DNA of 64,000 nucleotides from an uncultured Chloroflexia bacterium (GTDB lineage Bacteria > Chloroflexota > Limnocylindria > Limnocylindrales > CSP1-4), in the NCBI GenBank assembly GCA_963721655.1, contig CAVRKH010000001.1:169411-233410 (forward strand), in the 5' to 3' direction. The position numbers were made by a program, and so were the translations under genes. Below the pieces are notes generated by a model that was not told where the DNA came from, did not search any database, and saw nothing but the letters and a program-made list of their open reading frames with translations. The first letter of the stretch is position 1. Each line of letters begins with the position of its first letter. This document shows, in pieces, positions 1 to 20,988 of this stretch.

Positions 1-4
1 GGAT

Positions 5-262
5 GTGACGCGGGCGGCACGCGAGGCGGCGGCCCATACCGGCGGGCCCGTGGAGCTCGTCGCCCCGATGCCCGGGGTTGTCCTCGCAGTGGAGGTTGCC
101 CTCGGCGAGGCCGTGGCAGCCGGTGAGGCGATCGTGACCCTGGAGGCGATGAAGATGGAGCACGGCGTGGTCGCGCCCATCGCCGGGCGCCTGACCGAGC
201 TCCGGATCGCGGCCGGCGACCAGGTGACCCGCGGACAGGTCCTCGGCGTCGTCGAGCCCTGA
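5..262 (+). CDS. Biotin-carrier domain, probably the C-terminus of an acyl-CoA (methylcrotonyl-CoA-type) carboxylase alpha subunit; 5'-truncated by the window
   Basis: APMPGVV...EAMKMEH biotinylation motif; HMG-CoA lyase lies just downstream. Confidence 0.85.
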   Translation: MTRAAREAAAHTGGPVELVAPMPGVVLAVEVALGEAVAAGEAIVTLEAMKMEHGVVAPIAGRLTELRIAAGDQVTRGQVLGVVEP

Positions 263-307
263 CGGCTGCGCTACGCTCTCGGGCGAAGAGAGGAGTCAAC
301 GAGCCGA

Positions 308-550
308 ATGGCCAAGTCGCACAAGGACAAGTCCGGGAGCGCCAAGGCGTCGACCGCGGGCCAGGTCAGCAGCGAGCCGAAGCTGCCCGGTACCCGCGAG
401 GAGCTGCTCGAACTCCACCGCACGACGCGCAAGCGCCGGAACGCGGCGCCGCACGGGAGCGAGGAGCACCGCGCCGCCATCGACCTGATCGGGCGGATCG
501 AGGTCGAGGTTGCGCGGATCGAACGCGCGATGGATCCGCCCAGGGGCTGA
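308..550 (+). CDS. Small hypothetical protein (80 aa, predicted helical hairpin)
   Basis: GAGGAG RBS-like sequence upstream; high-GC3 codon use; sits between co-oriented genes. Confidence 0.65.
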   Translation: MAKSHKDKSGSAKASTAGQVSSEPKLPGTREELLELHRTTRKRRNAAPHGSEEHRAAIDLIGRIEVEVARIERAMDPPRG

Positions 551-554
551 TCGC

Positions 555-1490
555 GTGACCGACATACGCGGGCGCGTCCGGATCTACGAGGTGGGCCCCC
601 GCGACGGCCTCCAGAACGAGGCCACGCCGATCCCGACCGAAGCCAAGGCACGGTTCGTCGCGCTCCTCGCCGCGGCCGGTCTGCGTGAGATCGAGGCGAC
701 GAGCTTCGTCTCCCCGAGCGCCATCCCCCAGCTCGCGGATGCCGACGCGCTGATGGCCCTGCTGGATCGGCCCGACGGCGTTCGCTTCCCGGTGCTCGTG
801 CCGAACCAGCGCGGCCTGGATCGCGCCGAGGCTGCGGGCGTCGATGCGATCGCCGTGTTCACCGCGGCCAGCGACGCCTTCACCGCGCGGAACATCGGGA
901 TGACGGTCGAGGAGTCGCTGACGACGTTCGCGCCCGTCCTCGGTCGTGCCCGCGACCTCGGCTGGTGGACGCGCGGCTACGTCTCGACCGCGTTCGGCTG
1001 CCCGTACACCGGCCGCGTCGAACCCTCGCGAGCCGTCGAGGTCGCGGTCCGTCTCGTCGAGCTGGGCGTGGACGAGGTCTGCTTCGGCGACACGATCGGC
1101 GTCGGCGTGCCCGGCCAGGTCGAGGAACTGACCGGGCTGACGGCCCAGGCCGGCATCCCCCTCGACCGCGTCGCGTACCACTTCCACGACACGCGCGGCA
1201 CGGCCCTCGCCAACGTGGTGGCCGGGCTGCGTTCCGGGATCCGCTGCTTCGATTCGGCCGCGGGCGGGACGGGGGGCTGTCCGTACGCGCCCGGTGCGGC
1301 CGGCAACCTCGCTACCGAGGACCTGGTGTACCTGCTCGACGCCGAGGGCTGGGAGACCGGGGTGTCGCTCGCGGGGGTCCTCGAGGCCGCTCGGTTCGTC
1401 GCCGGCGAGCTCGGCAAGCCGCTTGCCACGAAGGTCGGCCAGGCCGGGGGATGGGACCCGGCGACCGGAGCTGCCGTCGCTCGCGGCTAG
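555..1490 (+). CDS. hmgL: Hydroxymethylglutaryl-CoA lyase
   Basis: EVGPRDGLQNE, HFHDTRG and GGCPYAPGAAGNLATED motifs. Confidence 0.95.
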   Translation: MTDIRGRVRIYEVGPRDGLQNEATPIPTEAKARFVALLAAAGLREIEATSFVSPSAIPQLADADALMALLDRPDGVRFPVLVPNQRGLDRAEAAGVDAIAVFTAASDAFTARNIGMTVEESLTTFAPVLGRARDLGWWTRGYVSTAFGCPYTGRVEPSRAVEVAVRLVELGVDEVCFGDTIGVGVPGQVEELTGLTAQAGIPLDRVAYHFHDTRGTALANVVAGLRSGIRCFDSAAGGTGGCPYAPGAAGNLATEDLVYLLDAEGWETGVSLAGVLEAARFVAGELGKPLATKVGQAGGWDPATGAAVARG

Positions 1491-1574
1491 TGGAGCGCCG
1501 CGGGAGGCCATTCAGTTCCGGCGGGCCCCTCGCCCAGCCAGCACGAACGCGACGTTCTGCTACATTCCGGCCCG

Positions 1575-2090
1575 ATGGACGGTGTCGTACTCGTTCTGAA
1601 CCAGAACTACGAGCCGCTCAACGTCTGCAACCTGCCACGGGCCTTCCGGCTGTTGTTCGGTGAGAAGGCCGAGGTGATCGAGTTCGACCACCAGATGGTG
1701 CGGACGCCGCGGGTCGAGTACCGCGCGCCATCCGTCATCCGCCTCCAGCACATGGTTCGCCGCCCGCGTCCCCGGGTGAAGCTGTCGCGTCGCGAAGTCT
1801 TCAGCCGTGACCGCCACACGTGCCAGTACTGCGGCCGGCAGACCCACGACCTCACGCTCGACCACGTCATGCCGCGCCATCGCGGCGGCGGCCACACCTG
1901 GGAGAACCTCGTCACCGCCTGCAAGACGTGCAACCACCGCAAGGGCGGCAAGACGCTCGAGGAGGCGCGCCTCCGGCTCCACCGCCCGCCGTACGAGCCG
2001 CGCAACGACATCTACTCGCTGTTCACCCCGTACCTGTCGGACGAACGAAACGAGGCGTGGCGGACCTACCTGTTCCTGGGTCGAAACTGA
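1575..2090 (+). CDS. HNH endonuclease (McrA-like stand-alone family)
   Basis: VLVLNQNYEPL N-terminus; RDRHTCQYCG, TLDHVMPR and WENLVTACKTCNHRKG. Confidence 0.93.
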   Translation: MDGVVLVLNQNYEPLNVCNLPRAFRLLFGEKAEVIEFDHQMVRTPRVEYRAPSVIRLQHMVRRPRPRVKLSRREVFSRDRHTCQYCGRQTHDLTLDHVMPRHRGGGHTWENLVTACKTCNHRKGGKTLEEARLRLHRPPYEPRNDIYSLFTPYLSDERNEAWRTYLFLGRN

Positions 2091-3442
2091 CCGACGAGGC
2101 GTCGCTCGCGGCATCGATCCCGGGTCCCGTCCACGAGATCATGGGGCTCCTGTGGTCGGCCGGGCATGCCGCCTACGTCGTCGGCGGCTCACTGCGCGAC
2201 GCCCTGCTCGGCAGGCTCGCGTTGGACTGGGACCTGGCCACCGATGCACGCCCCGACGAGATGCTTCGCGTGTTCCCGGAGGCCGTGTACGAGAACGCGT
2301 TCGGGACCGTGGTCGTCCGCCACGGCGGCGGCCTGTACGAGGTGACGACCTTCCGCACCGACCACGACTACGCGGACTACCGGCGGCCACATCGCGTCGA
2401 GTTCGGTGACTCGGTGGAGGTCGACCTCGCCCGGCGCGACTTCACGGTCAACGCGCTCGCCTGGGGCGCGCCCGCTGGCGCGCAGCCCGCACTCGTCGAT
2501 CCGCACGGCGGCCGCGCTGACATCGCCGCGCGGACACTCCGCGCGGTCGGCGACCCCAAGGAACGATTCGAGGAGGACGCGCTCCGGATGGTTCGGGCGG
2601 TTCGCCTCGCGGCGACGCTCGGGTTCACGATCGAGCCCGCCACGCTGGCCGGCATCGCGGCGAACGCGGACCTGGTCCGCTACCTGTCCGGCGAGCGGAT
2701 CTCGACCGAGCTGTCGAAGCTGCTCGCGGCCGAACGGCCGTCGATCGGGCTGCGGCTGCTGGCCGATAGCGGGCTGCTCGAACGGATCGCCCCGGAGCTG
2801 GCGCGGCAGCGCGGCGTGCCCCAGAACAAGGTTCCGGGCGAGGACCTCTGGGATCACACGGTCCGCACCGTCGACGCCGCGCGCGTCGACCGGCCGGTCG
2901 TCCGGCTCGCGGCGCTGCTCCACGACATCGGCAAGCCGGCGACGTACTCCGACGGCCACTTTCTCGGGCACGACGTCGTCGGGGCCGAGCTCGCCGGCGA
3001 GCTGCTCGATGCGCTCCGATCACCGCGTGCGGTTCGCGAGCGAGTCGTCCACCTGGTCCGCCACCACATGTTCAGCTACGAGCCCGCCTGGTCCGACACC
3101 GCGGTGCGCCGGTTCATCGGCAAGATCGGGGTGGATGCGGTCGACGACCTGTTCGCGCTGCGCGAGGCGGACAACGTGGGCAGCGGCCTGCCGGCCGGTG
3201 CTGGAGAGCTCGACGTGCTGCGCGAACGCGTGGCGCGCGAGCTGGCCGCCGAGGTCGTCCTCGACCGCAGCCGGCTCCAGATCGACGGGCAGGACCTGAT
3301 CGAGGAGCTCGGCCTGCGCCAGGGCCCGCTGCTCGGCCGGATCCTGGACGAGCTCGTCGAGCGGGTGATCGTCGATCCGAAGCTCAACGACCGGGCGACG
3401 CTGCTGCTGCTCGCACGATCCCGCATCGCGGACGAGGCGTGA
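2087..3442 (+). CDS. cca: tRNA nucleotidyltransferase (CCA-adding / poly(A) polymerase family) with HD domain; start uncertain (CTG 2087 or ATG 2141)
   Basis: VVGGSLRD...DWDLAT, DLARRDFTVNA, RFEEDALR and LLHDIGKP motifs. Confidence 0.9.
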   Translation: MTDEASLAASIPGPVHEIMGLLWSAGHAAYVVGGSLRDALLGRLALDWDLATDARPDEMLRVFPEAVYENAFGTVVVRHGGGLYEVTTFRTDHDYADYRRPHRVEFGDSVEVDLARRDFTVNALAWGAPAGAQPALVDPHGGRADIAARTLRAVGDPKERFEEDALRMVRAVRLAATLGFTIEPATLAGIAANADLVRYLSGERISTELSKLLAAERPSIGLRLLADSGLLERIAPELARQRGVPQNKVPGEDLWDHTVRTVDAARVDRPVVRLAALLHDIGKPATYSDGHFLGHDVVGAELAGELLDALRSPRAVRERVVHLVRHHMFSYEPAWSDTAVRRFIGKIGVDAVDDLFALREADNVGSGLPAGAGELDVLRERVARELAAEVVLDRSRLQIDGQDLIEELGLRQGPLLGRILDELVERVIVDPKLNDRATLLLLARSRIADEA

Positions 3443-3449
3443 GCCGGCC

Positions 3450-3935
3450 GTGATCGAGCTCATCCTGCAGGCCGAGCGAGCCCTGTCGGTCGGCCAGCTC
3501 GAGCAGGCCGAGCGGCTGTACCGCCAGGCCGCCGAGGCCGATCCGCGCAATTCGATCGCGGTCGTCGGATTGGCCCGGGTCGCGCTCGACCGGGGGGACG
3601 ATCGCGGTGCCTACACGCTCGCGCGGCAGGCGCTCGACATCGACCCGGAGAACGCAGCCGCGCAGCGACTGGCCGACCGGCTCGACGAGGTCATGCGCTA
3701 CCGGGGCGAAGAGCCGCCGGTGGTCGATGGGGACGCCGCCGTCAGTCGAGGCACCCGAAGCCCAGGCGCGCGCACCGGCCGCGCCGCCTCCAGCGCCCGC
3801 ACCGCCCGCACCACGCGCCCCGCGCAGCGCCCGCGCCCCCTCGCAAAGGGCCCGCCGCCTCTCGCGGCCAAGCCGGCGGCCGCCCCGCGCCCGCGCCGTC
3901 GCTCGCTCCTCGACCGCATTCGCCGCCGGCACTGA
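3450..3935 (+). CDS. Tetratricopeptide-repeat protein with basic low-complexity tail
   Basis: AERLYRQAAEADPRN and ARQALDIDPENAAA TPR patterns. Confidence 0.8.
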   Translation: MIELILQAERALSVGQLEQAERLYRQAAEADPRNSIAVVGLARVALDRGDDRGAYTLARQALDIDPENAAAQRLADRLDEVMRYRGEEPPVVDGDAAVSRGTRSPGARTGRAASSARTARTTRPAQRPRPLAKGPPPLAAKPAAAPRPRRRSLLDRIRRRH

Positions 3936-3951
3936 CGGTATCGTCCGGGGC

Positions 3952-4947
3952 ATGACACGGATCCTCGTCACCGGTGGGGCCGGCTACGTCGGCTCGGTCT
4001 CGGTCGCAGCGCTCCTCGCGGCGGGGCACACGGTCATGGTGCTCGACGACCTGAGCACCGGCCACGCGGCAGCCCTCCCCGAGGGCGCTCGCCTGTACCG
4101 CGGGTCATACGGTGACGAGGCATCGGTCCGCAGCCTGCTCGTCACCGGGCGGATCGAGGCGATCCTCCATTGCGCCGCCCGGTCGCTGGTCGGCGAGTCG
4201 ATCCGGAACCCGGCCACGTACTACCGCGACAACGTCGCGGGAGGGATCGCCCTGCTGGAGGCGGCGCGCCAGACAGGCGTGCAGCGGTTCGTCTTCTCGT
4301 CGACGGCCGCGGTCTACGGCACGCCCGACGAGTCGCCGATCCCCGAGGACGCGCCGCTCAGGCCGATCAACCCGTACGGCGAGACGAAGCGCACGCTCGA
4401 GACCGCGCTCGAGTGGTACGGCCGCGCGCACGGGCTGCGCAGCGTGACGCTGCGCTACTTCAACGTCGCCGGGGCCACGACGGCGCTCGGCGAGGACCAC
4501 GACCCCGAAACCCACCTGATCCCGAACGTCCTCGCCGCCGCCGAGGGCGGACCGGCCCTGACGGTCTTCGGCGACGACTACCCCACGCCCGACGGGACCT
4601 GCGTCCGCGACTACATCCACGTCGCGGACCTCGCCGACGCGCACCTGCTCGCGCTCGAGGCGACCGCGCCGGGGGACCGCCGCACGGACACGGCCCTCGT
4701 CTGCAATCTCGGCAACGGCGGCGGCTTCAGCATCCGCGAGGTGCTCGACGCGACCGCTCGGCTCGTCGGCCACGAGGTCCCGCACGCGGTGGGTCCGCGA
4801 CGTGCCGGCGACCCGCCCGTCCTCGTCGCCAGCGCCGAGCGCGCCCGCGACATCCTCCGCTGGCAGCCCAGGCGACCGTCACTCGACGAGATCATTGGCT
4901 CGGCGCTGGAGTGGCGCCGGACGCACCCGCGCGGCTACCGCGCCTGA
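3952..4947 (+). CDS. galE: UDP-glucose 4-epimerase
   Basis: ILVTGGAGYVGS, FSSTAAVYG, YGETK, LRYFNVAGA and DGTCVRDYIHV. Confidence 0.95.
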   Translation: MTRILVTGGAGYVGSVSVAALLAAGHTVMVLDDLSTGHAAALPEGARLYRGSYGDEASVRSLLVTGRIEAILHCAARSLVGESIRNPATYYRDNVAGGIALLEAARQTGVQRFVFSSTAAVYGTPDESPIPEDAPLRPINPYGETKRTLETALEWYGRAHGLRSVTLRYFNVAGATTALGEDHDPETHLIPNVLAAAEGGPALTVFGDDYPTPDGTCVRDYIHVADLADAHLLALEATAPGDRRTDTALVCNLGNGGGFSIREVLDATARLVGHEVPHAVGPRRAGDPPVLVASAERARDILRWQPRRPSLDEIIGSALEWRRTHPRGYRA

Positions 4948-4965
4948 CGCGCGAAACGCGGGGAG

Positions 4966-6366
4966 CTACGGGCCGCCGGACCGTGGCTCGATCGGTGCCG
5001 AGGCCGGCGCCAGCCGTTCGGGCAGCGTCCCGGCCTGCGACCCCGCGAGCTCGCCACTCCCCGTCCAGCGATCGCTGACCGGCAGGAGCAGCCACGCCCC
5101 GACGAGCATCGTCACGAGCAGGCTCAGGACGGCGAGCTGGTACGCGGCCACGCCGAGCACCGGCTGGAACAGCAACAGGGTCACGCCGAACAGCAGCTGC
5201 CCGATGACCTGCGAGCCCTTGCCCACGAGCCCGTAGAGGCCGAAGAACTCGCCGAGCTTCTCGGGCGGTGAGAGCCGCAGCATCAGCACGCGGTCGGAGA
5301 CCTGGACACCGCCAAGCCCGCTGCCGAGGATGGCCCCGGCCAGCAGGAACATCGCCAGCCCGACGGACCCGTCGACACCGAGCGAGATCCCGCCGATGAC
5401 GAGCCCGATCGCCCACGACGAGAGCACGATCATCAGCGTCCGCTTCGGCCCCAGTCGGTCGACCGTCCAGCCCCAGCCGAAGCTCGCCAGCACCGCGACG
5501 ATGGCCAGCGCGAGCAGGATCAGGTTGGCCACGGTGTTCGACAGGCCCATCGCCTCGGTGGCGACGATCGCCATCACGACGATGATCGTGTTGACCGCGT
5601 CGGAGTAGAAGAATCGCGCGACCAGGAAGCGGGTCAGGCCCGGCACCGTCCGGGCGTCGAGGATCGTCGCCCGCAACTGCCCGAGCGCGGCGATCGCCTC
5701 GCGCAGGCCCGGCTCCGGCGTACCGGGCGGCGGCACCGGCTCGCGGACCACGAGGAACAGCGGGATCGCGAACAATCCGAACAGCGCGGCCGCGACGAAG
5801 AACACGCTCGCGATCGGCAGGTCGAGCAGGAAGATCAGAACCCCGATGAAGATCGTCCCGCAGTAGCCGATCGCGACGCCGATCCCGGACAGCTTGCCCC
5901 GCGTCTCCGGGTAGCTGACGGTCTTCAGCGTCGCGTCGTAGTAGATCAGCGCCGACTGGTAGGCGAAGTTCGCAATGATGAAGAGCGTCAGGCCGGCGAA
6001 CGCCGGGCTCTGGCCGATCAGCGCCGTCGGGACGATGCAGAGCAGCGTGAAGAACAGCAGATACGGCAGGCGTCGGCCGCCGGCGCGGTCGCTCAGGGCG
6101 CCGAGGATCGGCGAGACGAGCGCGTTGATCCCGACGCTGACCGCGATCGCGACGCTGAACGCGAACGGCCCGTTGGCCTTCCCGAACTGCGTGTCCTCGA
6201 CGAGCCACAGGCCCATGGCGTACGACACGACCGCGTAGCTGTAGATCGTGTTGGCGAAGTCGTACAGGGCCCAGCCGGACGGGACGACAGCGCGGCCGCT
6301 CGGAGTCAGGCTTCCGAGCCCGAGGCGCCGGCCGGGGACGGGCCCGGTGGTCACGCCGCCGATCAT
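4966..6366 (-). CDS. MFS transporter (Atg22/UMF1-like)
   Basis: WALYDFAN N-terminus, PILGALSDR, DRLGPKR; about 12 hydrophobic segments. Confidence 0.88.
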   Translation of the reverse strand: MIGGVTTGPVPGRRLGLGSLTPSGRAVVPSGWALYDFANTIYSYAVVSYAMGLWLVEDTQFGKANGPFAFSVAIAVSVGINALVSPILGALSDRAGGRRLPYLLFFTLLCIVPTALIGQSPAFAGLTLFIIANFAYQSALIYYDATLKTVSYPETRGKLSGIGVAIGYCGTIFIGVLIFLLDLPIASVFFVAAALFGLFAIPLFLVVREPVPPPGTPEPGLREAIAALGQLRATILDARTVPGLTRFLVARFFYSDAVNTIIVVMAIVATEAMGLSNTVANLILLALAIVAVLASFGWGWTVDRLGPKRTLMIVLSSWAIGLVIGGISLGVDGSVGLAMFLLAGAILGSGLGGVQVSDRVLMLRLSPPEKLGEFFGLYGLVGKGSQVIGQLLFGVTLLLFQPVLGVAAYQLAVLSLLVTMLVGAWLLLPVSDRWTGSGELAGSQAGTLPERLAPASAPIEPRSGGP

Positions 6367-6383
6367 GCACCGCGAGACACCCC

Positions 6384-7102
6384 TTGACCAGCCGGTACGA
6401 TGATGCCGTGGACGCCATCGATCCAGTCATCGATCTCCTGGAGGACCTGCGGCCGCAGCCCTATGGGCTGGTCCGCTCGGACCGCATCGCCAACCCCATC
6501 GTCGAGCCGCAGTGGGCCGGGCTTCGCGTGCTCGCCGCGGTCGAGGACCGCTCGGTCGCACTGCGTGACGAGGCGGGCGAACCGGTCACCGAGCGCCCCG
6601 AGGTCGACCGCGCGCTCGGCTCGGCTGTCCGCGCGGGCTCGGCGATCTTCGACGGATTCCTGACCAAGCAGCCCACCGCCGACATCGTCTACGCGACGCC
6701 GTCCGGCGACGTGCCGTCACCAGGCGCGTTGATGGCGAAGCCGTTCATCGGCATGCGCCGCGATCGAGGCAAGGAGGCGGAAGCGGAGCGGGCAGCTCTG
6801 CCGAGGCGGCGACGTTCCGCGAAGAGGATCAGGTCGCATTCGTGGCCACGGATCTCCTGCGGATCGACGGCGACTCCCTGCTCGACGTTCCGCTGCTCGA
6901 GCGAAAGCGCCTCCTCGATTCGGTCATCGACCCGGTCGATCTCGTCCGTGTCGGCGCCTACGTCCGGCCCCCGCTCGAGACGTGGATCGGCACGTGGCGG
7001 CGGCTCGGGTTTCTCGGGCTGTCCTTCCGCGCCGCCAACTCCCGCTACCACCCGGGCGAGAAGCACGACGACTGGACCCTCGTCCCGATGCCTCGGCGCT
7101 GA
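6384..7102 (+). CDS. ATP-dependent DNA ligase adenylation-domain homolog with catalytic residues replaced; one apparent frameshift at ~6800
   Basis: EPQWAGLR (cf. EPKWDGxR), FDGF, DLLRIDGDSLLDVPLLERKRLL and SRYHPG..W; joins the start of ORF 6384 to ORF 6842..7102. Confidence 0.75.
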
Positions 7103-7133
7103 CACACCGGCGCGAGGCTGCTACGGTTGCCTC

Positions 7134-8534
7134 GTGCCCCCCACGGTCCTGACGCCGGCCATTCGAGACGAGGTCGCCCGGCTGGGAAAGGCCGACATCA
7201 TGGTCGGCATCCCGAGCTTCAAGAACGCGGCGACGATCGGCTACGTGGTGCGCGCCGCGCAGGCCGGGCTCGTGCAGTACTTCCCCGACCTGCGGCCCGT
7301 CCTGGTCAACTCCGATGCGGGCTCGCCCGACGGCACGCAGCGGGTGGTGATCGACACCGAACCGCCCGACTACGTCGAGCAGATCCTCCTCGTCCGGCCG
7401 ACGAACCGGCTCGACCGCGTCTCGCTGACCTACCCGGAGATCGAGGGCACCGGCGGCAAGGGCGCCGCCCTGCGGACGATCTTCGAGATGGCGGCGGCCC
7501 TCGATGTCGAGGCGCTCGTCGTCGTCGACTCGGACCTGCGCTCGATCGTCCCCGAATGGATCGAGCTCCTCGCCGGACCGATCCTCAAGGGTGGCTACGA
7601 CTTCGTCGCGCCGCTCTACGCCCGCTACAAGTTCGACGGCACGATCACCAACACCGTCACCTACCCGCTCACGCGGGCCCTCTACGGGCACCGCATCCGC
7701 CAGCCGATCGGTGGCGATTTCGGCGTCTCGGGCGACCTGGTCCGGCACTACCTCGAGCTCGACGACTGGACCGACGACATCAGCAAGTTCGGCATCGACA
7801 TCTGGATGACGACGTCGGCGCTGGCCGGCGGGTTCGCCGTCTGCCAGACGCGGCTCGGGGCCAAGATCCACGACCCGAAGGACCCGGGCTCCGACCTCGG
7901 GCCGATGTTCCGCCAGGTCGTCGGGACGATCCTGCGGCTGGCCTCGACCTACTCGGACAAGTGGCTGACGATCCGCGGCAGCCACGAGGTCCCGGCGTAC
8001 GGCTTCGAGCGGATCATCGACCCGCCGCCGCTCGAGGTGAACACGATCCGCCTGCTGTCCGAGTTCCACTCGGGCTCCCTCACGATGGGCAGCACCTGGG
8101 AGTCGATGATCGCCGCGGACAACGTCGAGACGGTGCTCGAGCTTGCCGGCGAGGCCGGGCGGCTGGCCGACCACGCGCGCACGAAGCTCGGAATCGGTGG
8201 GGACGTGTCCTCCACCCGGGCGACGACGGCCGAGATGGCCGATGCTCTCGCGGCGTTCCACTTCCCCGACGACCTGTGGGCGCGGGTCATCTACGACCTC
8301 GTCCTGACGGCACGCGCCCGGCCTGAGGACGTCGAACGGTTCGTGGCCGCGCTCGTGCCGATCTACTTCGGCCGCGTCGGCAGCTTCGTCATCGAGAACC
8401 GCTCGATCACCACCGAGCAGGCGGAGGACCGCGTCGAGCGCCAGGCGCGCGAATTCGAGCTCCTGAAGCCGTACCTCGTCGAGCGCTGGACCGGGAAGCC
8501 GGCGAAGAAGGCCCAGGCCGAGGTGCGCGCATGA
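7134..8534 (+). CDS. GT-A glycosyltransferase of the glucosylglycerate/mannosylglycerate synthase type
   Basis: VGIPSFKNAATI, DAGSPDGT, GKGAAL, VDSDLRSI, RYKFDGTITN, IRQPIGGDFG, FGIDIWMT and KIHDPKDP. Confidence 0.85.
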   Translation: MPPTVLTPAIRDEVARLGKADIMVGIPSFKNAATIGYVVRAAQAGLVQYFPDLRPVLVNSDAGSPDGTQRVVIDTEPPDYVEQILLVRPTNRLDRVSLTYPEIEGTGGKGAALRTIFEMAAALDVEALVVVDSDLRSIVPEWIELLAGPILKGGYDFVAPLYARYKFDGTITNTVTYPLTRALYGHRIRQPIGGDFGVSGDLVRHYLELDDWTDDISKFGIDIWMTTSALAGGFAVCQTRLGAKIHDPKDPGSDLGPMFRQVVGTILRLASTYSDKWLTIRGSHEVPAYGFERIIDPPPLEVNTIRLLSEFHSGSLTMGSTWESMIAADNVETVLELAGEAGRLADHARTKLGIGGDVSSTRATTAEMADALAAFHFPDDLWARVIYDLVLTARARPEDVERFVAALVPIYFGRVGSFVIENRSITTEQAEDRVERQAREFELLKPYLVERWTGKPAKKAQAEVRA

Positions 8535-10462
8535 GCCGCTCGCCGCTCCCCGCGCGGATCCTGATCCCGGTCGCCAACCCGCTCACCGCCGAGGAGCTGA
8601 TCAAGCTCGGCGCGGCGATCCTCGACAAGCGCGGCGAGCTGACCGCGCTCGGGATCGTCGAAGTGCCCGAGGGGATGCCGCTGTCGGAGGGCGCGACGCG
8701 GGCGCGGCACGCCCGCCGGCTCCTCCAGCGCGTTCTCGACTTCGCGCCCGAAGGAACGACGATCCATCCCATCGTGCGCATCGGCCGGCGGGCGGCCGAG
8801 GGCATCATCGAGGCATCCGGCGAGCAGGAGTCGGACCTCGTGATCTTCGGCTGGGGCGGCAAGGCGCCGAACGCCCGCAACGGCCACGGGCCGGCGGTGT
8901 TCTCGCCGACGATCGACGAGGTGGTGCGCGACTCCCCGTGCGACATCGCGGTCGTCAAGCAGCGCGGCGCCACGACGATCCGGCGGATCCTCGTGCCGGT
9001 CCGCGGCGGACCGCACGCCGAGCTCGCGATCCGTTTCGCCGACGCGATCGCCCGCACCCACGGGGCGACGGTGGCGGTCCTCCATCTCGTCCCGCCGGGG
9101 ATCACCGCCACCGTGCGAGCCCAGGCGGAGCACGCGCTGGCCGCCTTCATGAAGGAGTACCTGCACGGGGACGGCGAGGCGCTCCTGCGCGAGGCGCCGA
9201 ACGTCCGGGCGGCGATCCTGCGCGAAGCCGAGAAGGCGGACCTCGTGGTGATGGGCGCCTCGGCGCAGCCGTTCGGATCCAACGGCGAGCCGTATCTGTT
9301 CGGCGCGCTCCCCGAATCGATCGCGGCGCGCGCGAAGCCGACCGTCATCGTCGTCAAGACCCGCGAGCAGATCGCCAGCGCCACGTTCGACCAGCTCGCC
9401 GCCCGGGCCGAGACGCTCGCCGCTGCCGACCGGGCGGCCGAGGCGGTCCGCGCGGTGCCGGCGCGCGTGGACCGCTGGTTCGGCGAGTCGAACTTCCACC
9501 ATTCGGAGTTCGGTGACCTGGGCCGGTTGACCGCGCTCAAGACCAAGCAGGGCGCGACCGTCAGCCTCGTCCTGCCGACCCTCAACGAGGCGGAGACGAT
9601 CGGCCCGATCGTGGAGCGTGCGATCAAGGAGATGGTCGAGCGCTTCCCGCTGCTCGACGAGATCCTCGTCATCGACTCGGACTCGGACGACCGCACGCGG
9701 CAGATCGCCACCGACGCGGGTGCCCGCGTCGTTTCCCACTCCGAGGTTCTGGCCCGCTACGGCACGTTCCGCGGCAAGGGCGAGGCGCTCTGGAAGTCGC
9801 TCTACGAGACGACCGGCGACATCGTCGTGTGGGCCGACACCGACGTGCACAACTGGCACCCCCGACTGGTCTACGGGACGTTGGGCCCGCTGCTCCACGA
9901 GCCGCGGCTGCAGTACGTCAAGGGCTACTACCAGCGCCCGATCGTCGAACGTGGCGTGCTCACGGAGGGCGGCGGCGGCCGGGTCACGGAGCTCGTCGCA
10001 CGCCCGCTGATCAACCTGTTCTTTCCCGAACTGTCGGGGCTCATCCAGCCGCTCGCCGGCGAATACGCCGGGCGTCGCTCGCTGCTCGAGTCGATCCCGT
10101 TCTTCACCGGCTACGCCGTCGAGATCGGCCACCTCATCGATATCGCGGAGCGCGTCGGACTCGAAGGGCTGGGCCAGGTCGATCTCGAGCGCCGGGTCCA
10201 CCGCAACCAGGAGCTCGAGGGGCTGTCGCGGATGTCGTTCGTGATCCTCCAGGCGATCATGAAGCGGCTCGAGGAGCGACGGCGCGTGCGCCTGTTCGCG
10301 GAGCTCGGCTCGACGATGAAGCTGCCGCGCTCGGGCAGGAACAAGCTGTCGCTCGAGGTCATCGAGCTCGCCGACCAGGAGCGCCCGCCGATGATCCGCA
10401 TCCCCGAGTACCTCGAACGTCGCCAGCAGACCGAGGCGGGGACCGAACCGGCCGTCAAGTGA
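8531..10462 (+). CDS. gpgS: Fusion of two universal stress protein domains to glucosyl-3-phosphoglycerate synthase
   Basis: USP motifs ILIPVAN..DLVIFGW..SPCDIAVVK and ILVPVRGGPHA..DLVVMGA; GpgS motifs LPTLNEAETIG, GKGEALWKSL, GGGRVTELVARP, QPLAGEYAGRR and HRNQ. Confidence 0.9.
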   Translation: MSRSPLPARILIPVANPLTAEELIKLGAAILDKRGELTALGIVEVPEGMPLSEGATRARHARRLLQRVLDFAPEGTTIHPIVRIGRRAAEGIIEASGEQESDLVIFGWGGKAPNARNGHGPAVFSPTIDEVVRDSPCDIAVVKQRGATTIRRILVPVRGGPHAELAIRFADAIARTHGATVAVLHLVPPGITATVRAQAEHALAAFMKEYLHGDGEALLREAPNVRAAILREAEKADLVVMGASAQPFGSNGEPYLFGALPESIAARAKPTVIVVKTREQIASATFDQLAARAETLAAADRAAEAVRAVPARVDRWFGESNFHHSEFGDLGRLTALKTKQGATVSLVLPTLNEAETIGPIVERAIKEMVERFPLLDEILVIDSDSDDRTRQIATDAGARVVSHSEVLARYGTFRGKGEALWKSLYETTGDIVVWADTDVHNWHPRLVYGTLGPLLHEPRLQYVKGYYQRPIVERGVLTEGGGGRVTELVARPLINLFFPELSGLIQPLAGEYAGRRSLLESIPFFTGYAVEIGHLIDIAERVGLEGLGQVDLERRVHRNQELEGLSRMSFVILQAIMKRLEERRRVRLFAELGSTMKLPRSGRNKLSLEVIELADQERPPMIRIPEYLERRQQTEAGTEPAVK

Positions 10463-10505
10463 CCGCGGTTCGGCTCGTGACGTCGGCGGAACGGGCCCGA
10501 TCTTG

Positions 10506-10659
10506 GCCAGATATTCACCCCGCGACTGAAAGGCACGAGTCGAAGCATCTTGGACCGCTTCAGTTAGCCAGAACTGGCTACATCCAGGCCCAACTGCCCC
10601 CTATTTGGCCCGATTGCGGCCATTTCGACGGCCTCCTAGTCACGGGGCGACTATCTGGC
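10506..10659. repeat. ~155-bp intergenic element with 22-bp imperfect terminal inverted repeats and a central palindrome (MITE/REPIN-like)
   Basis: GCCAGATATTCACCCCGCGACT (10506) vs reverse complement of AGTCACGGGGCGACTATCTGGC (ends 10659), 19/22 match; TAGCCAG-AA-CTGGCTA at 10565-10580; lower GC than the flanks. Confidence 0.6.
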
Positions 10660-10666
10660 AACAACC

Positions 10667-11209
10667 ATGGGCCTCATGCCTGAATCGCCGGCCCTCACCG
10701 TCACCGCGCTCGACGTCGAGGCGTACCGTGCCGCGATCCCGGAGCTCGCCGCGCTGATCGTCGACGCGGTGGCGAGCGGGGCCGGCGTCAACTTCCTCGA
10801 TGGCGTCACGCTCGACGAGGCGGCGTCGTGGTGGCGCGCTCGCGAGGGCGACGTTGCGTCCGGCCGGACGACGCCGTTCGTGGCGGTGGACGGCGGGCGG
10901 ATCGTCGGCTCCACGCTGCTCATCCGCTCGGTCAACCAGAACTCCCCGCATCGCGCCGAGATCGGCAAGGTCATCGTCCTGGGTTCGCACCGTCGGCGAG
11001 GATTGGCGTCCGAATTGATGCGCGCAGCCGAGGATCGTGCCCGCGCGGAGGGCCGCTGGCTGCTCGTCCTCGACACCGTGACCGGGTCGGCGGCCGATGC
11101 CTTCTACCGATCGCTCGGCTGGCAGGAGACGGGCGTCGTGCCGAACTACGCGCTCAACCCGGACGGCCAGCCGTGGGCTGCGACGTTCTTCTGGAAGGAC
11201 CTCCGATGA
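10667..11209 (+). CDS. GNAT acetyltransferase (Ttr-like)
   Basis: NSPHRAEIGK, HRRRGLASELM, LLVLDTVTGS and FYRSLGW. Confidence 0.9.
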   Translation: MGLMPESPALTVTALDVEAYRAAIPELAALIVDAVASGAGVNFLDGVTLDEAASWWRAREGDVASGRTTPFVAVDGGRIVGSTLLIRSVNQNSPHRAEIGKVIVLGSHRRRGLASELMRAAEDRARAEGRWLLVLDTVTGSAADAFYRSLGWQETGVVPNYALNPDGQPWAATFFWKDLR

Positions 11210-12321
11210 GCGGCGAGTCGCGGACGGTCCTGATCGCACCCGATTCGTTCAAGGGGTCGCTGTCCCCCGTCGCGGTCGCGTGGGCGATCGCTGACGGCTG
11301 GCGCCGGGCTCGGCCACATGACAGCGTGCTGCTGTCGCCGCTCGCCGATGGCGGGGAGGGCACGCTCGTGGCCGTGGAGGCTGCCGGCGGCTGGGAATGG
11401 CACGAGGTCGCGGCCACCGACCCCATCGACCGCCCGGTGCGTGCGCGCTGGCTGCGGTCGAGCGACGGCCGGCGGGCGGTCGTCGAGCTGGCCGAGGCCT
11501 CGGGGTTGTCACGCCTGACGCCCGAGGAACGGGACCCGACGGGCGCCTCGACCTACGGCACCGGCGAGGTGCTGCGCGCGGTGATCGAATCCGGCGTCGA
11601 GCAGGTCACGATCGGGATCGGTGGAAGCGCCACGACCGATGGGGGGTACGGGATCCTGAAGGCGCTCGGCGTGCGGAGCGACCCCGCACGGGACGGCTTC
11701 CTGCATCTCGACGAGCTCGACGACCTCGCGAACGTCGACCTGCGGGTCGCCTGCGACGTCACCAATCCGCTGCTGGGTTCGCGCGGAGCGGCGGCGACCT
11801 ACGGCCCGCAGAAGGGCGCCTCGCCGGAGCAGGTCGAGGAGCTCGACGCGCACCTCGAGCGCTTCGCCGACCAGCTGGCCGCGGGGGTCGGGCGCGACGA
11901 GCGCGAGACGCCGGGCGCCGGTGCGGCCGGGGGCGTCGGGTTCGCCCTGCTGTCGATCCAGGACCGCTTTCGGTCGTTCGCGCTGCGGCCCGGGGTCGAT
12001 CTCGTCATGGAGCTGACGGACTTCGAGGAGAAGCTCGGGCAGGCGGACATCGTGATCACCGGCGAAGGTCGCATCGACGCCCAGACCGCGTTCGGCAAGA
12101 CCGCGCTCGGGGTGGCGCAGCGGGCATCGGCGGCCGGCGTGGCCTGCGTGGCGGTCGGCGGCGGGGTCGAGCCGGCCGGGATCGACGCGCTGGCCAAGCT
12201 GGGCGCGGTGGCGGTGCCGGTCGTCGAGCGGCCGCAGTCCGTCGAGGAGGCGATGGCGGCCGGGACGGCACCGCTCGAACGATGTGGGGAGCGGATCGCT
12301 CGGTTGGTGTCGCTGTGGTGA
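11206..12321 (+). CDS. glxK: Glycerate kinase (GlxK/GarK family)
   Basis: IAPDSFKGSL, PLADGGEGT, GIGGSATTDGG, YGPQKGA and ITGEGRIDAQTAFGK. Confidence 0.93.
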   Translation: MSGESRTVLIAPDSFKGSLSPVAVAWAIADGWRRARPHDSVLLSPLADGGEGTLVAVEAAGGWEWHEVAATDPIDRPVRARWLRSSDGRRAVVELAEASGLSRLTPEERDPTGASTYGTGEVLRAVIESGVEQVTIGIGGSATTDGGYGILKALGVRSDPARDGFLHLDELDDLANVDLRVACDVTNPLLGSRGAAATYGPQKGASPEQVEELDAHLERFADQLAAGVGRDERETPGAGAAGGVGFALLSIQDRFRSFALRPGVDLVMELTDFEEKLGQADIVITGEGRIDAQTAFGKTALGVAQRASAAGVACVAVGGGVEPAGIDALAKLGAVAVPVVERPQSVEEAMAAGTAPLERCGERIARLVSLW

Positions 12322-13159
12322 CCCCGGGCGCGACGCCCAGCCCGCGGCCGAAGGCGAAACGGCCGAAGAAGCGGCGCTATTCGAACCCTGCCGCGTCGTA
12401 CGCCAAGCGGCTCGAGCGCTACCGCCCGGGGCTCGTGCCGTTCGTGCTCGACGGGCTCGCGTCGATCTACGGCCACCCGGTCTGGGAGCGCCGCCAGGAC
12501 CCGACGAGCGAGCTGATCCTGACGATCCTCACCCAGAACAGCGCCGACGTGAACGCCGAGGTCGCGTTCGAGGCGCTGCGGACGGCGTATCCGTCGGGGC
12601 TGCCGGTGCAGCGGCACGTCCCCGGGGAGGGCTGGGGCGGGGTCGGGCTGTCGGAGGGGGCGCCACCGGACTGGGAACGGGTCGAGTTCGCGCCACTCCC
12701 CGAATTGACCGACGTGATCCGGCCGGGCGGCCTTGCCAACAGAAGGCGCCACGCCTCCAGGCGACCCTGCGCAGGATCCGCGAGGAACGCGGCGACTACT
12801 CCCTCGAATTCCTGGGCGACATGTCGGCGCTCGAGGCCCGCGACTGGCTCACCCAGATCGACGGCATCGGCAAGAAGACCGCCTCGGTGCTGCTGCTGTT
12901 CTGCTTCGGCTCACCGCTCCTGCCGATCGACCGCCACGTCGACCGGGTGATGCATCGCGTCGGCATCCTCTACCCGGACAACCTCCCCATGGAGGACGCC
13001 CACGACCTCGTGCTCGGGCTGTTCGAGCCGGACCAGATGTTCGAGGCGCACGTCAACCTGATCCAGCACGGCCGCAAGATCTGCCACGCCCAGCGGCCCG
13101 CCCACGAGCTGTGCCCGCTGCGCGACCGCTGCCGCTTCGTCGACCCGAAGGCGCCGTAG
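12318..13159 (+). CDS. nth: Endonuclease III-family HhH-GPD DNA glycosylase (frameshift ~12740)
   Basis: ELILTILTQN, IRPGGLA.QKA, IDGIGKKTA, PIDRHV and C-terminal Fe-S motif CHAQRPAHELCPLRDRC. Confidence 0.88.
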
Positions 13160-13227
13160 GTCGCTCGCCGCAGAACGCGGCCCCTTCCCGCGATGCGACT
13201 TCCCGGCATCACGCTCGCCGGAATCGA

Positions 13228-13257
13228 AGAGGCCGGTCCCCCCAGAGACCGGCCTCT
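13228..13257. terminator. Hairpin between convergent genes (probable terminator)
   Basis: AGAGGCCGGTC...GACCGGCCTCT 11-bp stem; weak U-tract. Confidence 0.55.
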
Positions 13258-13278
13258 CCTACCCCCGGGTTGGATCGA

Positions 13279-16200
13279 CTACTTGATTGGCTTGAAGAGG
13301 GCGTAGGTCCCACCGCCCGACGGGCCGGAGGACAGGAGCACGGAGGTTGCCGCCGGAGTCGACAAGTCGAACGTCCAGGCGATAGCACTGGTTGATCTGC
13401 ATCGTGACGCTCGGCGGCTTGCCCGTGTCAAGGTTGTAGATCCACTGGGATGTGGACCAGCGGAAGAGGTTGGTGTTGTCGTTGGCGGAGCCCGGCGTCG
13501 GCGTAGGCTTCGACGAGGTCGCTCGTCGCCGAACCGGCACAGGTCGAGCTAGTGACACCGATCCGCAGCGTGAGGTTGTTCGCGTTGAGGAACGACTCAG
13601 TCATTGCGACCGGCGTCCCACCGAGCGACAAGGTGCCGGTGACCTTGACCGGGATGACCCGGCCCATCTTGCCCTGGTTGATGACTGGGGTGGCCGACCC
13701 GACCGTCTGGTCGATCGGCTGGTAGTACTGCAGCGTCGCGGCCGACAGACCCGCGTGACGGTGATCGGAGGCAGGTCGCTCGTCCGACCGGCGAAGGTCG
13801 CCGTGTCGGCGACCGCTGGAGATCGTGTTCGTGCCGCAGGCGAGGAGGTGGAGGCCGTCCAGTTCCGGCGCGGTGTAGGCGGCGTTCGGCCCGCCGTTGA
13901 CGTTGACCTTTTCGATGCCCGCTGTGGCGAGTCTCGACGGCCGTCTCCGCGTTGACCGCTGACGGACGACGCCACCGTGACGTAGCCGGTGCCGGGGGAG
14001 GCAGATCGCGACCACCGGATTTGTCTTGTCGATCTGGAAGTCGGCGCTCGGCACACCGCTGGCGGTGTTGCCGGCGAGGTCGGTGCAGGGATCGGAGGTC
14101 ACGCTGACCGCGAAGCCCTCACCGCTCGTCGTCTTGGTACTGGGCGTTGCCCGGGAAGGCCAGGGCACAGGCCGCGTTGGGGCCGGAGATCCCGGCGTCG
14201 AGGCTGAACTCGTTGGTGACGTCGGTGTTGTACCAGCCGTTGCTGTTCGCGGAGGGTCGTCGGGCCGTCGTCGGTGATGACCGGCGCGGTCTTGTCGATC
14301 TGGAAGCCGGCGCTGGGCACACCGCTCGCGGTGTTGCCGGCGAGGTCGGTGCAGGGATCGGAGGTCACGCTGACCGCGAAGCCCTCACCGCTCGTCGTCT
14401 TGGACTGGGCGTTGCCCGGGAAGGCCAGGGCACAGGCCGCGTTGGGGCCGGAGATCCCGGCGTCGAGGCTGAACTCGTTGGTGACGTTGGTGTTGTACCA
14501 GCCGTTGCTGTTCGGGGGGTCGTCGGGCCGTCGTCGGTGATGACCGGCGCGGTCTTGTCGATCTGATCGCCGAAGGTCGCGGAGCTGTCGGTGTTGCCGG
14601 CGAGGTCGGTGCAGCGCGGTCGCTGCTGCGGACGTGGTCTCGGCGGCGGGGTCGTCTGTCGGCGACGGTCGACGGCGATGCCCGTTGGACCGTCGATCGG
14701 CGCACGTGAAGCTCCGGTACGTCGGTTGTCCAGCCGTTGGACGTGGCGGCGTCGGCTGGCCCCGGGAGATGACCGGCGCGGTCTTGTCGATCTCGGCCGG
14801 GCGTGAGCGTCGTGTTGCCGGCGATGTCGGTGCAGTCGCCGTCGCTGCGACGGACCCGTCGAGGTCTCGGCGGTCAGGGTGTGTCGTCGCCGGGACGGTC
14901 GGTGCGATGCGCGTTGGACCGAGCCCGTGTCGGCGCACGTGAAGCTCATGGTGACCGACGGTTCGTCCAGGTTGCCGCGACGTAGGGCGAGGCATCGGCG
15001 TTGGCCGCCGAGCTCGTGATGACCGGCGCGGTCTTGTCGATCTGGACCGGACCTGAAGCGTCGCGGACGCCGTCGGCGTTGCCGGCGTTGTCGATGCAGT
15101 CGCCGTCGCTGCTGACGGACCCGTTCGAGGTCTCGCGGTCAGGGTCGTCGTCGTCGTCGGCGACGGTGTCGGTGGCGATGCCCGATTGGACCGTGCCCGT
15201 GTCGGCGCACGGTGAAGCTCACGGTCACCGACTGGTTCGTCCAGCGTTGCCCGCGACGTAGGGCGAGGCATCGGCGTTGGCCGACGCGCTCGAGATGACC
15301 GGCGCGGTCTTGTCGATCATCACCGGACCGAAGGTCGCGGAGCCGTCGGCGTTGCCGGCGTTGTCGATGCAGTCGCCGTCGCTGCTGACGGACCCGTTCG
15401 ACGGTCTCGGCGGTCAGCGGTGTCGTCATCGTCGGCGACGGTGTCAGGTTGCGATGCCCGATTGGACCGTGCCGGTGTCGGCGCAGGTGAAGCTCACGGT
15501 CACCGACTGGTTCGTCCAGGTTCGCCGCGACGTAGGGCGAGGCATCGGCGTTGGCCGCCGAGCTCGAGATGACCGGCGCGGTCTTGTCGATCATCGGACC
15601 GGACCGAAGGTCGCGGAGCTGTCGGCGTTGCCGGCGTTGTCGATGCAGTCGCCGTCGCTGCTGACGGACCCGTTCGAGGTCTCGGCGGTCAGGGTGTCGG
15701 TCATCGTCGGCGACGGTGTCGGTTGCGATGCCCGATTGGACCGTGCCCGTGTCGGCGCACGTGAAGCTCACGGTCACCGACTGGTTCGTCCAGGTTCCCG
15801 CGACGTAGGGCGAGGCATCGGCGTTGGCCGCCGAGCTCGAGATGACCGGCGCGGTCTTGTCGATCATGACCGGACCGACGGTCGCGGAGCTGTCGAAGTT
15901 GCCGGCGTTGTCGATGCAGTCGCCGTCGCTGCTGACGGACCCGTTCGAGGTCTCGGCGGTCAGGGTGTCGTCATCGTCGGCGACGGTGTCGGTTGCGATG
16001 CCCGATTGGACCGTGCCCGTGTCAGCGCACGTGAAGCTCACGGTCACCGACTGGTTCGTCCAGGTTCCCGCGACGTAGGGCGAGGCATCGGCGTTGGCCG
16101 CCGAGCTCGAGATGACCGGCGCGGTCTTGTCGACGAGGACCTCGTCGCCCGTCGTCTGGGCGTTTCCGTTACCGGCCGTGTCGGTCACGGCGGCGGTTGC

Positions 16201-18333: not shown

Positions 18334-18684
18334 GCTTCCCGGCGCCGGCGAGGACCGCGATCAGCGGCACCGCCACGACGTCCCCAGAACGTCGATGGAG
18401 CGGTCGAGAGCTGACGAGGCGACGATCGAACGGGGATCGATGGGCGAGACGGATAAGTGCTTACGCGTCGATCGTCCGCCCCGGTTCGCTGCGACCCCCC
18501 GGCTCGGACACCTATGCAGATCGCTCGGATACCCGGCGATCGAATGGACGCCAACCGTACTGCCGGTTCCAGCCGAAATCAACTACTCCGCATTGACTAT
18601 TTCGGCCCCGCACCGCGTTACAAACATCCAAGTGGTGACAGGGGGCACCGATCCGGGCTCGAAGGCGCGCGGTACCATCCGGCC

Positions 18685-19425
18685 ATGTTGAGCGGCGTGC
18701 CCGGAGGACCAGGCGGCACGGCGCCACGGATCCTCATCGTCGACGACGATCCGAACCTGCTCGTCCTGCTCGCCGAGCAGCTCCGCTCCGACGGCTACGA
18801 GATCGCCACGGCTCGTGACGGGGAGGAGGCCCTCCGCCGCCTCCAGGCGAGCTGGCCGGACCTCCTGATCATCGACATGATGATGCCGCGCATGGACGGC
18901 CTGTCCCTCGCGCGCGAGATCAAGTCACGCGCGGACCTCCCGATCATCGTGCTGTCGGCGATCGATGCCAGCGATTCGAAGGCGGACCTTCTCGAGGAGG
19001 TCGCCGAGGACTACATCACCAAGCCGTATCACTACCCGGAGCTCCGGGCGCGCATCAACCGGGTGATGCGTCGCCTCGGCGACAAGGTTCCCCGCCAGAG
19101 CCTCGTCCTCGGGCCGGACCTCACGCTCGACCTGTACCGCCGCGAGGCCACCGTCGGCGAGACCACCGTCCAGCTGACGCCGACCGAATCGCGTCTGCTC
19201 TATGCGCTTGCCGCGAACATCGGCCAGACCGTCTCGACGGAGACGCTCCTCGTCCGGGGCTGGGCCGAGACCGAGGACGCCGACCCCTCGTATGTCTGGG
19301 TCACGATGCGCCGTCTGCGCCAGAAGATCGAGGTCGACGCAAACCGTCCGAAGCATCTCGTGACGGTCCGTGGCGTCGGCTATCGACTCCTCCGGTCGAA
19401 CGGCGAGAACGGCGCCGATGGATGA
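18685..19425 (+). CDS. OmpR/KdpE-family response regulator
   Basis: ILIVDDD, LIIDMMMP, DYITKPY; winged helix LTPTE..RRLRQKIE..TVRGVGYR. Confidence 0.93.
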   Translation: MLSGVPGGPGGTAPRILIVDDDPNLLVLLAEQLRSDGYEIATARDGEEALRRLQASWPDLLIIDMMMPRMDGLSLAREIKSRADLPIIVLSAIDASDSKADLLEEVAEDYITKPYHYPELRARINRVMRRLGDKVPRQSLVLGPDLTLDLYRREATVGETTVQLTPTESRLLYALAANIGQTVSTETLLVRGWAETEDADPSYVWVTMRRLRQKIEVDANRPKHLVTVRGVGYRLLRSNGENGADG

Positions 19426-20828: not shown

Positions 20829-20988
20829 CCGGGTCGGTCTGGGAGGGTTGGCCCAGCTGGCGATGGGACAAAGGTACTAAGCGACGGTGCCGCGAGGCAG
20901 CATTGCAAGGTTGCCTGAAATGTCACTGACACAGGATCGTAGCGAGTCGCCCAGACACCAAGTCAGGGCTTCACCGCCGGGGAACCAT

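Follow-up and report, generated by a model that had tools for sequence, protein, structure and literature searches.

The gene and its reading frame

The window, by which we mean the whole 64,000-nt stretch of DNA analysed here, has a GC content of 70% and belongs to an assembly of 21 contigs that is 75.7% complete (genome G000). It carries a gene, henceforth PL1, for a stand-alone ligase adenylation (NTase) domain lacking the motif I lysine, with a divergent transporter gene on one side and glycosyltransferase genes on the other (Table 1). Two frames joined near position 6800 give one ligase-like protein, and the third-position GC changes frame near 6790-6830; the intact copy described below encodes 231 residues. 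The C-terminal half of the window ORF alone reached the PF01068 cut-off, and the intact protein scored 28.5 bits against that model (cut-off 26.2). The stop codon (7100-7102) lies 31 nt before the GTG at 7134, the spacing and orientation toward the glucosylglycerate genes that an earlier note on this DNA had described.

That note had also begun the ORF at 6384, which is a TTG codon. We dropped this codon for GTG 6408, given the position of a TAnnnT box across orthologues from f1, the family to which the window's genus belongs: the box precedes the chosen start by 4-8 nt in 109/121 f1 orthologues and none of 1173 internal ATG, GTG or TTG codons, although our start-picking rule itself favoured starts preceded by such a box. 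PL1 probably starts at GTG 6408 in a leaderless arrangement, so that of the extent first proposed (6384..7102) the stop is retained and the start is moved. The 96 aligned f1 PL1 promoters contained no conserved motif further upstream than the -10 box, and a consensus promoter and terminator scan of 6250-7250 gave no match. Leaderless starts 4-8 nt past a TAnnnT box are common in f1 (window 6396-6401 and 7122-7127, and the upstream regions of PL2, a second family described below) and aid start calling in Limnocylindria. Six soil RNA runs contained 0.07-0.09 of the words.

Table 1. Features at and around PL1 in the window; residue numbers are those of M. tuberculosis LigD and fractions are PL1 orthologues.
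Feature	Position	Strand	Remarks
MFS/Atg22-like transporter, divergent	4966..6366	-	match in 62/80 f1-type loci
Likely -10 box TACGAT	6396..6401	+	leaderless promoter, 6 nt before GTG 6408
PL1 gene	6408..7102	+	intact copy G000:C11 = L027/P0003; PF01068; model pLDDT 91.9
Motif I, EPQWAGLR	6504..6527	+	Lys481 to Gln, Asp483 to Ala; Glu479, Trp482, Arg486 kept
Asp-Glu replacing Ser500-Arg501	6567..6572	+	Arg in 8/167; gaps in 27 f1 rows
Motif III, DGF	6651..6659	+	Glu530 lost; Glu in 0/167
One-base deficit shifting the frame	6799..6800	+	likely assembly error
Motif IIIa, Thr-Asp	6848..6853	+	Phe559 lost here, Phe in 26/167 (f3 20/20); Asp560 in 167/167
Motif IV, GFLGLSFR	7007..7030 (LGLSFR 7013-7030)	+	Glu613 to Leu, Glu in 7/167; Lys618 as Lys or Arg in 167/167
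Arg629 position and motif V, WTLVP	7061..7087 (WTL 7073-7081)	+	Arg629 in 17/167, Lys635 in 5/167, Lys637 in 1/167
Likely separate -10 box TACGGT	7122..7127	+	belongs to downstream glycosyltransferase gene, GTG 7134
GT-A glycosyltransferase, GgS-like (putative activity)	7134..8534	+	weak: PF00535; NF010496 51.6 bits vs cut-off 262
USP-fused glucosyl-3-phosphoglycerate synthase	8531..10462	+	PF00582 and PF00535; NF010496 374 bits, over cut-off

The frame break amounts to one base missing after 6799. On contig C11, the same assembly holds a second copy of window positions 1-13268 at 95% identity, in which PL1 is 97% identical, has one base more after 6799 and runs through 231 open codons. Four public DNA runs were compared (X2 lacks coverage of 6799/6800), and all four contigs that cross the site (one from X1, two from X3 and one from X7) have the extra base. 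In neighbouring genes, dozens of single-base indels separate the two assembly copies (the HMG-CoA lyase gene, for instance, has 55 and that of the CCA-adding enzyme 25), which marks the assembly as indel-prone. Since the C11 copy and every crossing contig are intact, the break is probably an assembly error, in keeping with the joined ORF and the indel near 6800 that the earlier note had assumed; a lesion specific to this strain is the lesser possibility. The frameshift might instead be real and PL1 a decaying pseudogene, but this is hardly credible: besides the intact copies and the abundance of indels in neighbouring genes, the two PL1 copies in the assembly differ by 16 synonymous and only 3 non-synonymous changes, and internal stops are absent from the class-wide PL1 matches listed. 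At the level of the family, decay is refuted.

Two strain copies are present in the assembly more widely, as window 1-13268 and 18121-20830 are 95-96% identical to G000:C11, from which numerous single-base indels set them apart; two copies of a LigA-type gene likewise occur (C14 and C1). An endonuclease III (Nth)-like gene at window 12318-13159 is one base short near 12742 relative to its C11 copy, again probably an assembly error. The reverse strand at 13260-18333 encodes a large secreted protein with exact 327-nt internal repeats and many frameshifts in its 3' part.

Active-site losses and the predicted fold

Residues were numbered after M. tuberculosis LigD through a HMMER alignment of a 20-relative profile to 1VS0/6NHX, and the equivalence of motifs was also checked in a joint alignment with 15 Lys-containing ligases. 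All residue counts refer to 167 distinct PL1 orthologues from four Limnocylindria families (f1, f3, f4 and f5), after exclusion of L020 (which contains N bases and whose genome is represented by L125), the window's own frameshifted copy (L001, L026) and 19 duplicate sequences. According to the accessible text of PMC8656161, Lys481 of LigD is the nucleophile and Glu613 a metal ligand; phosphates are contacted by Arg501 (ATP gamma phosphate), Arg629, Lys635 and Lys637, the ribose by Arg486 and Glu530, and the adenine by Glu479, Lys618 and main-chain atoms of motif I.

The altered motifs I, III, IV and V that had been read from the window are all present in its sequence and align with their ligase equivalents, and the losses go further, taking in the counterparts of Arg501, Arg629 and Lys637 and the Phe of motif IIIa (Table 1). 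Lys481 is found in 0/167 orthologues, so its loss, first noticed in one gene, is conserved throughout, and Asp483 is kept in 14/167. Out of eight catalytic, metal and phosphate residues, none is kept in 121/167 orthologues, one in 40 and two, the maximum, in 6, compared with seven or eight in the 15 active control ligases, which were picked on motif I and therefore conserve that motif by construction. Asp483 is included among the eight as a residue that we take to be part of the LigD catalytic set.

Fifteen different residues occupy the position of the motif I lysine across PL1 orthologues. Among 268 metagenomic homologues, 210 have a readable motif I and just one of these has the lysine (P0144); it reads EPKWSG and DGY and lacks the other catalytic residues, which suggests that the motif I site drifts freely. 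The window ORF stops 8 residues after the motif V Trp, bearing out the noted absence of an OB-fold, and the tail past this Trp is at most 42 residues long in 167/167 orthologues, leaving no room for an OB domain in any of them. Lacking nucleophile, metal ligands, phosphate contacts and OB domain, PL1 very likely has neither adenylation nor sealing activity.

Contacts to adenine and ribose are kept: Glu479 and Trp482 in 167/167 orthologues, Lys or Arg at position 618 in 167/167 and Arg486 in 161/167. An aromatic floor of the pocket is provided by a swap, the aromatic residue lying at the Glu530 position in 111/123 f1 rows and at Phe559 in 20/20 f3 rows; 18/23 f4 rows have no aromatic at either floor position. 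With the adenine and ribose contacts kept and the triphosphate and metal contacts lost, nucleotide binding by PL1 is plausible on sequence grounds. However, the domain has a median net charge of -6 to -12, and this acidity, together with the loss of all basic phosphate-binding residues, argues against ATP or DNA binding.

AlphaFold predicted a ligase adenylation-domain (NTase) fold for PL1 (pLDDT 91.9, pTM 0.87), the one low-confidence exception being a variable insert at residues 91-120. A Foldseek comparison of the model with ligase structures returned an E value of 4.5e-14, and superposition on LigD and archaeal ligases gave Z 21-22 and rmsd 2.5-3.2 over 183-189 residues, so that the kinship with ligases proposed for this gene holds in the model. 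Ligase adenylation domains came first among structural matches, followed by snurportin-1 and capping enzymes; matches in the ESM Atlas were confined to Chloroflexota clusters without a name and to generic clusters of PF01068.

By sequence, the best match to a solved structure is the LIG domain of LigD (Rv0938; 1VS0, 6NHX, 6NHZ; E ~1e-14), which we group with stand-alone LigC under PF01068; the NTase fold predicted for PL1 superposes on LigD LIG with Z 21.0 and rmsd 3.0 over 183 residues. PL1 and LigD LIG have Glu479, Trp482, Arg486, Asp529, Asp560 and Lys618 in common; unlike LigD, PL1 has lost Lys481, Asp483, Arg501, Glu530, Glu613, Arg629, Lys635 and Lys637 and has no OB, PE or POL domain. 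Judged by alignment and model, PL1 shares with ATP-dependent DNA ligases the fold alone and departs from them in every catalytic feature. It scores far under every NCBIfam ligase cut-off, and public records often name its members 'ATP-dependent DNA ligase' or 'LigD'. The host carries LigA-, LigB-, LigC- and LigD-type genes; having LigA and several ATP-dependent ligase genes, it would not need PL1 for ligation.

Distribution, gene neighbours and promoters

A PL1 profile match (E<=1e-25) was found in 160/201 genomes of the class, four of which are flagged unpublished and were counted in this tally only. By family, matches occurred in 56/60 f1, 51/66 f3, 51/66 f4 and 1/1 f5 genomes and in 0/7 of the small-genome family f2; the 40 f3, f4 and f5 matches that were extracted all belong to the PL1 family. 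A wider profile applied to 25 match-less genomes recovered two more PL1 genes (G080, G104). Nine f1 and f4 genomes that are 89-99% complete and ten f2 genomes yielded only other ligases and no PL1. The nine retain LigD, and PL1 therefore appears dispensable. Of 301 genomes sampled from the phylum, 266 belong to other families, and these yielded two matches, each within a long frame of LigD size. A GTDB contig scan confirmed 354 relatives; the named ones among the 80 of 354 listed come from Chloroflexota, often under the label Candidatus Limnocylindrales or Limnocylindria.

In a tree of 74 rows (midpoint root), PL1 formed one clade (100/99) with subclades f1, f4 and f3+f5, the pattern expected if, as these branchings indicate, the gene is vertically inherited. 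Among 41 non-overlapping close pairs, PL1 dN/dS ranged from 0.054 to 0.375 (median 0.187; 41/41 within 0.05-0.38), and neighbouring genes in subsets of the same pairs had median values of 0.03-0.15, figures that the choice of pairs at PL1 identity of at least 70% biases low and simple counting at 70% GC biases high. By this measure PL1 is constrained, a little less than the adjoining enzymes. A ratio somewhat above that of its neighbours and the absence of PL1 from some genomes might speak for decay, as does the frameshifted window copy, a reading refuted above for the family. PL1 is a real, class-wide pseudo-enzyme, and that it is both catalytically dead and under selection across the class we hold with high confidence; the earlier suggestion of a selected pseudo-enzyme agrees with the universal lysine loss, the low dN/dS of every pair and the match of the model to ligase domains.

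The GgS-like gene directly follows PL1 in the same orientation in 78/80 f1-type loci (short contigs account for the remaining two) and 17/19 f4 loci. Also conserved in the 80 f1-type loci are GalE (70), the USP-GpgS fusion (72), CCA (59) and TPR (59), with many misses at contig ends. This arrangement could mean that PL1 regulates or channels the adjacent glucosylglycerate and glucosyl-phosphoglycerate enzymes, for example as an energy-charge sensor; adjacency survives in four f1 loci with a rearranged upstream side, and gaps between PL1 and the GgS-like gene go down to 18 nt. We consider this quite unlikely. The whole block HNH-CCA-TPR-GalE-PL1-GgS-GpgS-GlxK-Nth is conserved, in f4 too, so that the adjacency is not special. 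A separate TAnnnT box precedes the GgS-like gene in 95/97 f1 loci; no terminator-like site was found between this gene and PL1. In f3 and f5, PL1 lies between NfeD-SPFH and glutamate dehydrogenase-DinG in 21/21 loci, the GgS-like gene adjoins it in 0/21, and that gene was located elsewhere in 20/20 genomes tested. Moreover, the nine PL1-lacking genomes keep the GgS-like gene, and G085 presents the reverse case, PL1 being present and a GgS-like match not found with the query used. At ten loci, nine of them from the PL1-lacking genomes and one from G045, no PL1 remnant was detected within 1.5 kb upstream of the GgS-like gene (best E 0.14).

Old synteny, retained by f1 and f4 and lacking in f3/f5, is thus the best reading of the adjacency of PL1 and the GgS-like gene, and the view of PL1 as leader of a glycosyltransferase cluster is not supported in light of the likely separate promoter box, the other location in f3/f5 and the genomes that keep the glycosyltransferase alone. 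Its link to the glucosylglycerate genes is weak, and PL1 probably stands outside the neighbouring sugar-solute pathway. The USP-GpgS fusion (8531-10462) is itself followed by a glycerate kinase gene, an order kept in both f1 and f4. In the PL1 loci of these two families, neither a ligase nor a Ku gene is next to PL1.

In f3 and f5, one or two GAAC-N4-GTTC boxes lie upstream of PL1 in 21/21 loci, with 1 such box elsewhere in 257,913 nt. The accessible text of PMC3323433 gives this sequence as the LexA motif of Firmicutes and Actinobacteria. We found it in the lexA promoter of 5/5 genomes and before uvrB, error-prone polymerase, RecA-like and Rv2578c-like genes; by these promoters, GAAC-N4-GTTC is the LexA box of Limnocylindria. 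Boxes in G000 (C14:168821, C21:135323, C21:138880 and C21:330169; the lexA loci are L278-L282) precede genes that by inspection we named uvrA, RecA/ImuA-like, error-prone polymerase and radical SAM protein. PL1 loci of f1 (0/79) and f4 (0/18) have no LexA box. An SOS box in the window's own lineage was accordingly discarded, with none exact in the 79 f1 loci and one-mismatch sites in 5/79, about background.

In 20/21 f3/f5 loci the box falls within a divergent TTGACA-N16-18-TAnnnT promoter that faces away from PL1 and serves a small conserved ORF of 62-93 codons, recovered in 19/21 loci; a GATACT hexamer on the PL1 side, 16-18 nt past the box, is present in 12/21. By this geometry the box would mainly serve the divergent gene, and co-repression of PL1 by LexA is possible. 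DNA-damage control of PL1 is hinted at in two families, a lead and not proof. The small ORF (L158-L178, for example L160:6767-7000) has the core WRxPPRxYSP and varies synonymously; with no NCBIfam match, no usable ESM Atlas match and no significant match in G000, it is a candidate for an SOS protein of a new kind.

Possible roles of PL1 and a second lysine-less family

Catalytically dead versions of the ligase/capping-enzyme fold have been described in a virus (A20) and in eukaryotes (snurportin-1), and PL1 would be a bacterial case; we found no such bacterial family in the open literature, subscription papers being mostly uncovered. In the accessible text of PMC3278928, snurportin-1 is a stand-alone domain of the covalent-nucleotidyltransferase fold used to bind a nucleotide structure. 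Its m3G-cap-binding domain (1XK5) superposed on the PL1 model with Z 16.7 and rmsd 2.5 over 160 residues at 14% identity. Unlike PL1, which derives from DNA ligases, snurportin-1 is eukaryotic, resembles capping enzyme and binds a guanine cap. The middle domain of poxvirus A20 is an inactive, non-catalytic DNA ligase in a polymerase co-factor, as stated in the accessible text of PMC11142717; it matched the model weakly (8WPF_B; Z 8.1, rmsd 4.1, 139 residues). A20 differs from PL1 in being viral, in keeping the OB fold and in having terminal domains that bind polymerase and glycosylase, neither of which PL1 has. The scores rank ligases (Z 21-22) above snurportin-1 (16.7) and A20 (8.1), neither of which was in the tree. 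By analogy, PL1 most likely works as these non-catalytic fold members do.

Since PL1 keeps the part of the pocket that recognises adenosine, with an aromatic floor in f1 and f3, we tentatively favour the view that PL1 is a non-catalytic binder or adaptor with an adenosine pocket, serving in the handling of nucleic-acid ends or damage, a reading somewhat short of even odds. The pocket would hold an adenosine group, either AMP or an adenylated DNA or RNA 5' end, and the bound state would be passed to partner proteins of nucleic-acid end or damage handling. Whether the pocket is still in use we judge an even question, and the link to DNA damage or end handling, which draws on ancestry and the LexA boxes of two families, is weak. 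A more specific version, in which PL1 is a bacterial counterpart of snurportin that reads 5'-adenylated DNA or RNA ends or adenosine-capped RNA and passes these on to enzymes of repair or decay, is unlikely as it stands. If PL1 does read adenylated ends, it would name a factor for bacterial sensing of stalled ligation intermediates.

Nearly as serious a candidate, if still a doubtful one, is a pure protein scaffold or adaptor resembling the A20 middle domain, with a vestigial pocket and selection on the fold and outer surface, given the acidity of the domain and the chance that the retained residues are structural. Glu479, Lys618 and Arg486 may indeed serve structure only: presumably Glu479-Lys618 and Arg486-Asp529 could form salt bridges, and PL2, a family that was inactivated independently, retains the same pocket residues. 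PL1 has lost every phosphate contact and, except in f3, the stacking Phe, and in all four families Glu165, Arg166, Arg168, Arg181 and Asn211 are invariant on the putative surface side, with Gln17 and Trp193 conserved to at least 90%; lineage-specific inserts and basic tails could dock partners. Yet Arg168 and Arg181 occur in 6/15 and 3/15 active ligases and may be structural, no partner gene is conserved across all families, and the 14 longer matches, all LigD-type, include no PL1 fusion, which is weak evidence.

Against the binder that we favour, PL1 might also be an enzyme that dispenses with the lysyl-AMP step, performing only step 3 on pre-adenylated ends, whether to seal or to reverse them, or a new reaction. 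An archaeal RNA ligase in which the motif I Lys is replaced (K97A) retains full step 3 activity (accessible text of PMC3514331), and PL1 keeps its adenosine contacts. This we think improbable, because Asp483, Glu530, Glu613 and Lys635/Lys637 are lost too, nick sealing is absent in LigD Glu613Ala and Lys637Ala (accessible text of PMC8656161), and the lost positions hold 11-16 different residues, so that no substitute catalytic residue is fixed.

The same genome encodes a second lysine-less ligase family, PL2 (G000:C12:58268-59011; L025/L199, P0004), which is conserved in f1 and f4 and was not found in print. PL2 resembles PL1 in comprising only the NTase domain and in having lost Lys481, Asp483, Glu613, Lys635 and Lys637. 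In contrast to PL1, it keeps Glu530, Phe559 and mostly Arg629, and has an N-terminal QLxL and a C-terminal LxxRLP peptide, both absent from the PL1 alignments; we take the QLxL peptide to resemble a sliding-clamp motif. PL2 lies behind Ku in 8/8 f4 loci (L216, with an internal stop, was left out of PL2 counts) and PL1 does not, Ku being on another contig in G000 and ~35 kb from PL1 in G045. In the tree, PL2 is a clade apart from PL1 and sister to two Lys-containing, Ku-adjacent f3 ligases, a placement that makes its inactivation independent of that of PL1. An obligate PL1-PL2 pair was rejected, as PL2 occurs without PL1 in G064 and G081, and PL1 in genera g22, g6, g15 and g24 without a PL2 match (query used).

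PL1 and PL2 thus represent two independent ligase-to-pseudoenzyme changes in one lineage, one of which has a living Lys-containing sister group. If the more specific, snurportin-like version is true, Limnocylindria would have converted ATP-dependent ligases to non-enzymatic repair factors twice, PL1 before diversification of the class and PL2 later, beside Ku. PL1 is small and well folded in the model; it occurs in about four-fifths of the genomes sampled from an abundant uncultured class, and databases often misname it as a ligase. Its f4 orthologues (L139-L157) carry a basic C-terminal tail of ~30 residues with a GR[LM]FG-type core, which we take to resemble an amphipathic membrane-targeting helix, and a similar segment lies in the internal insert of f1.
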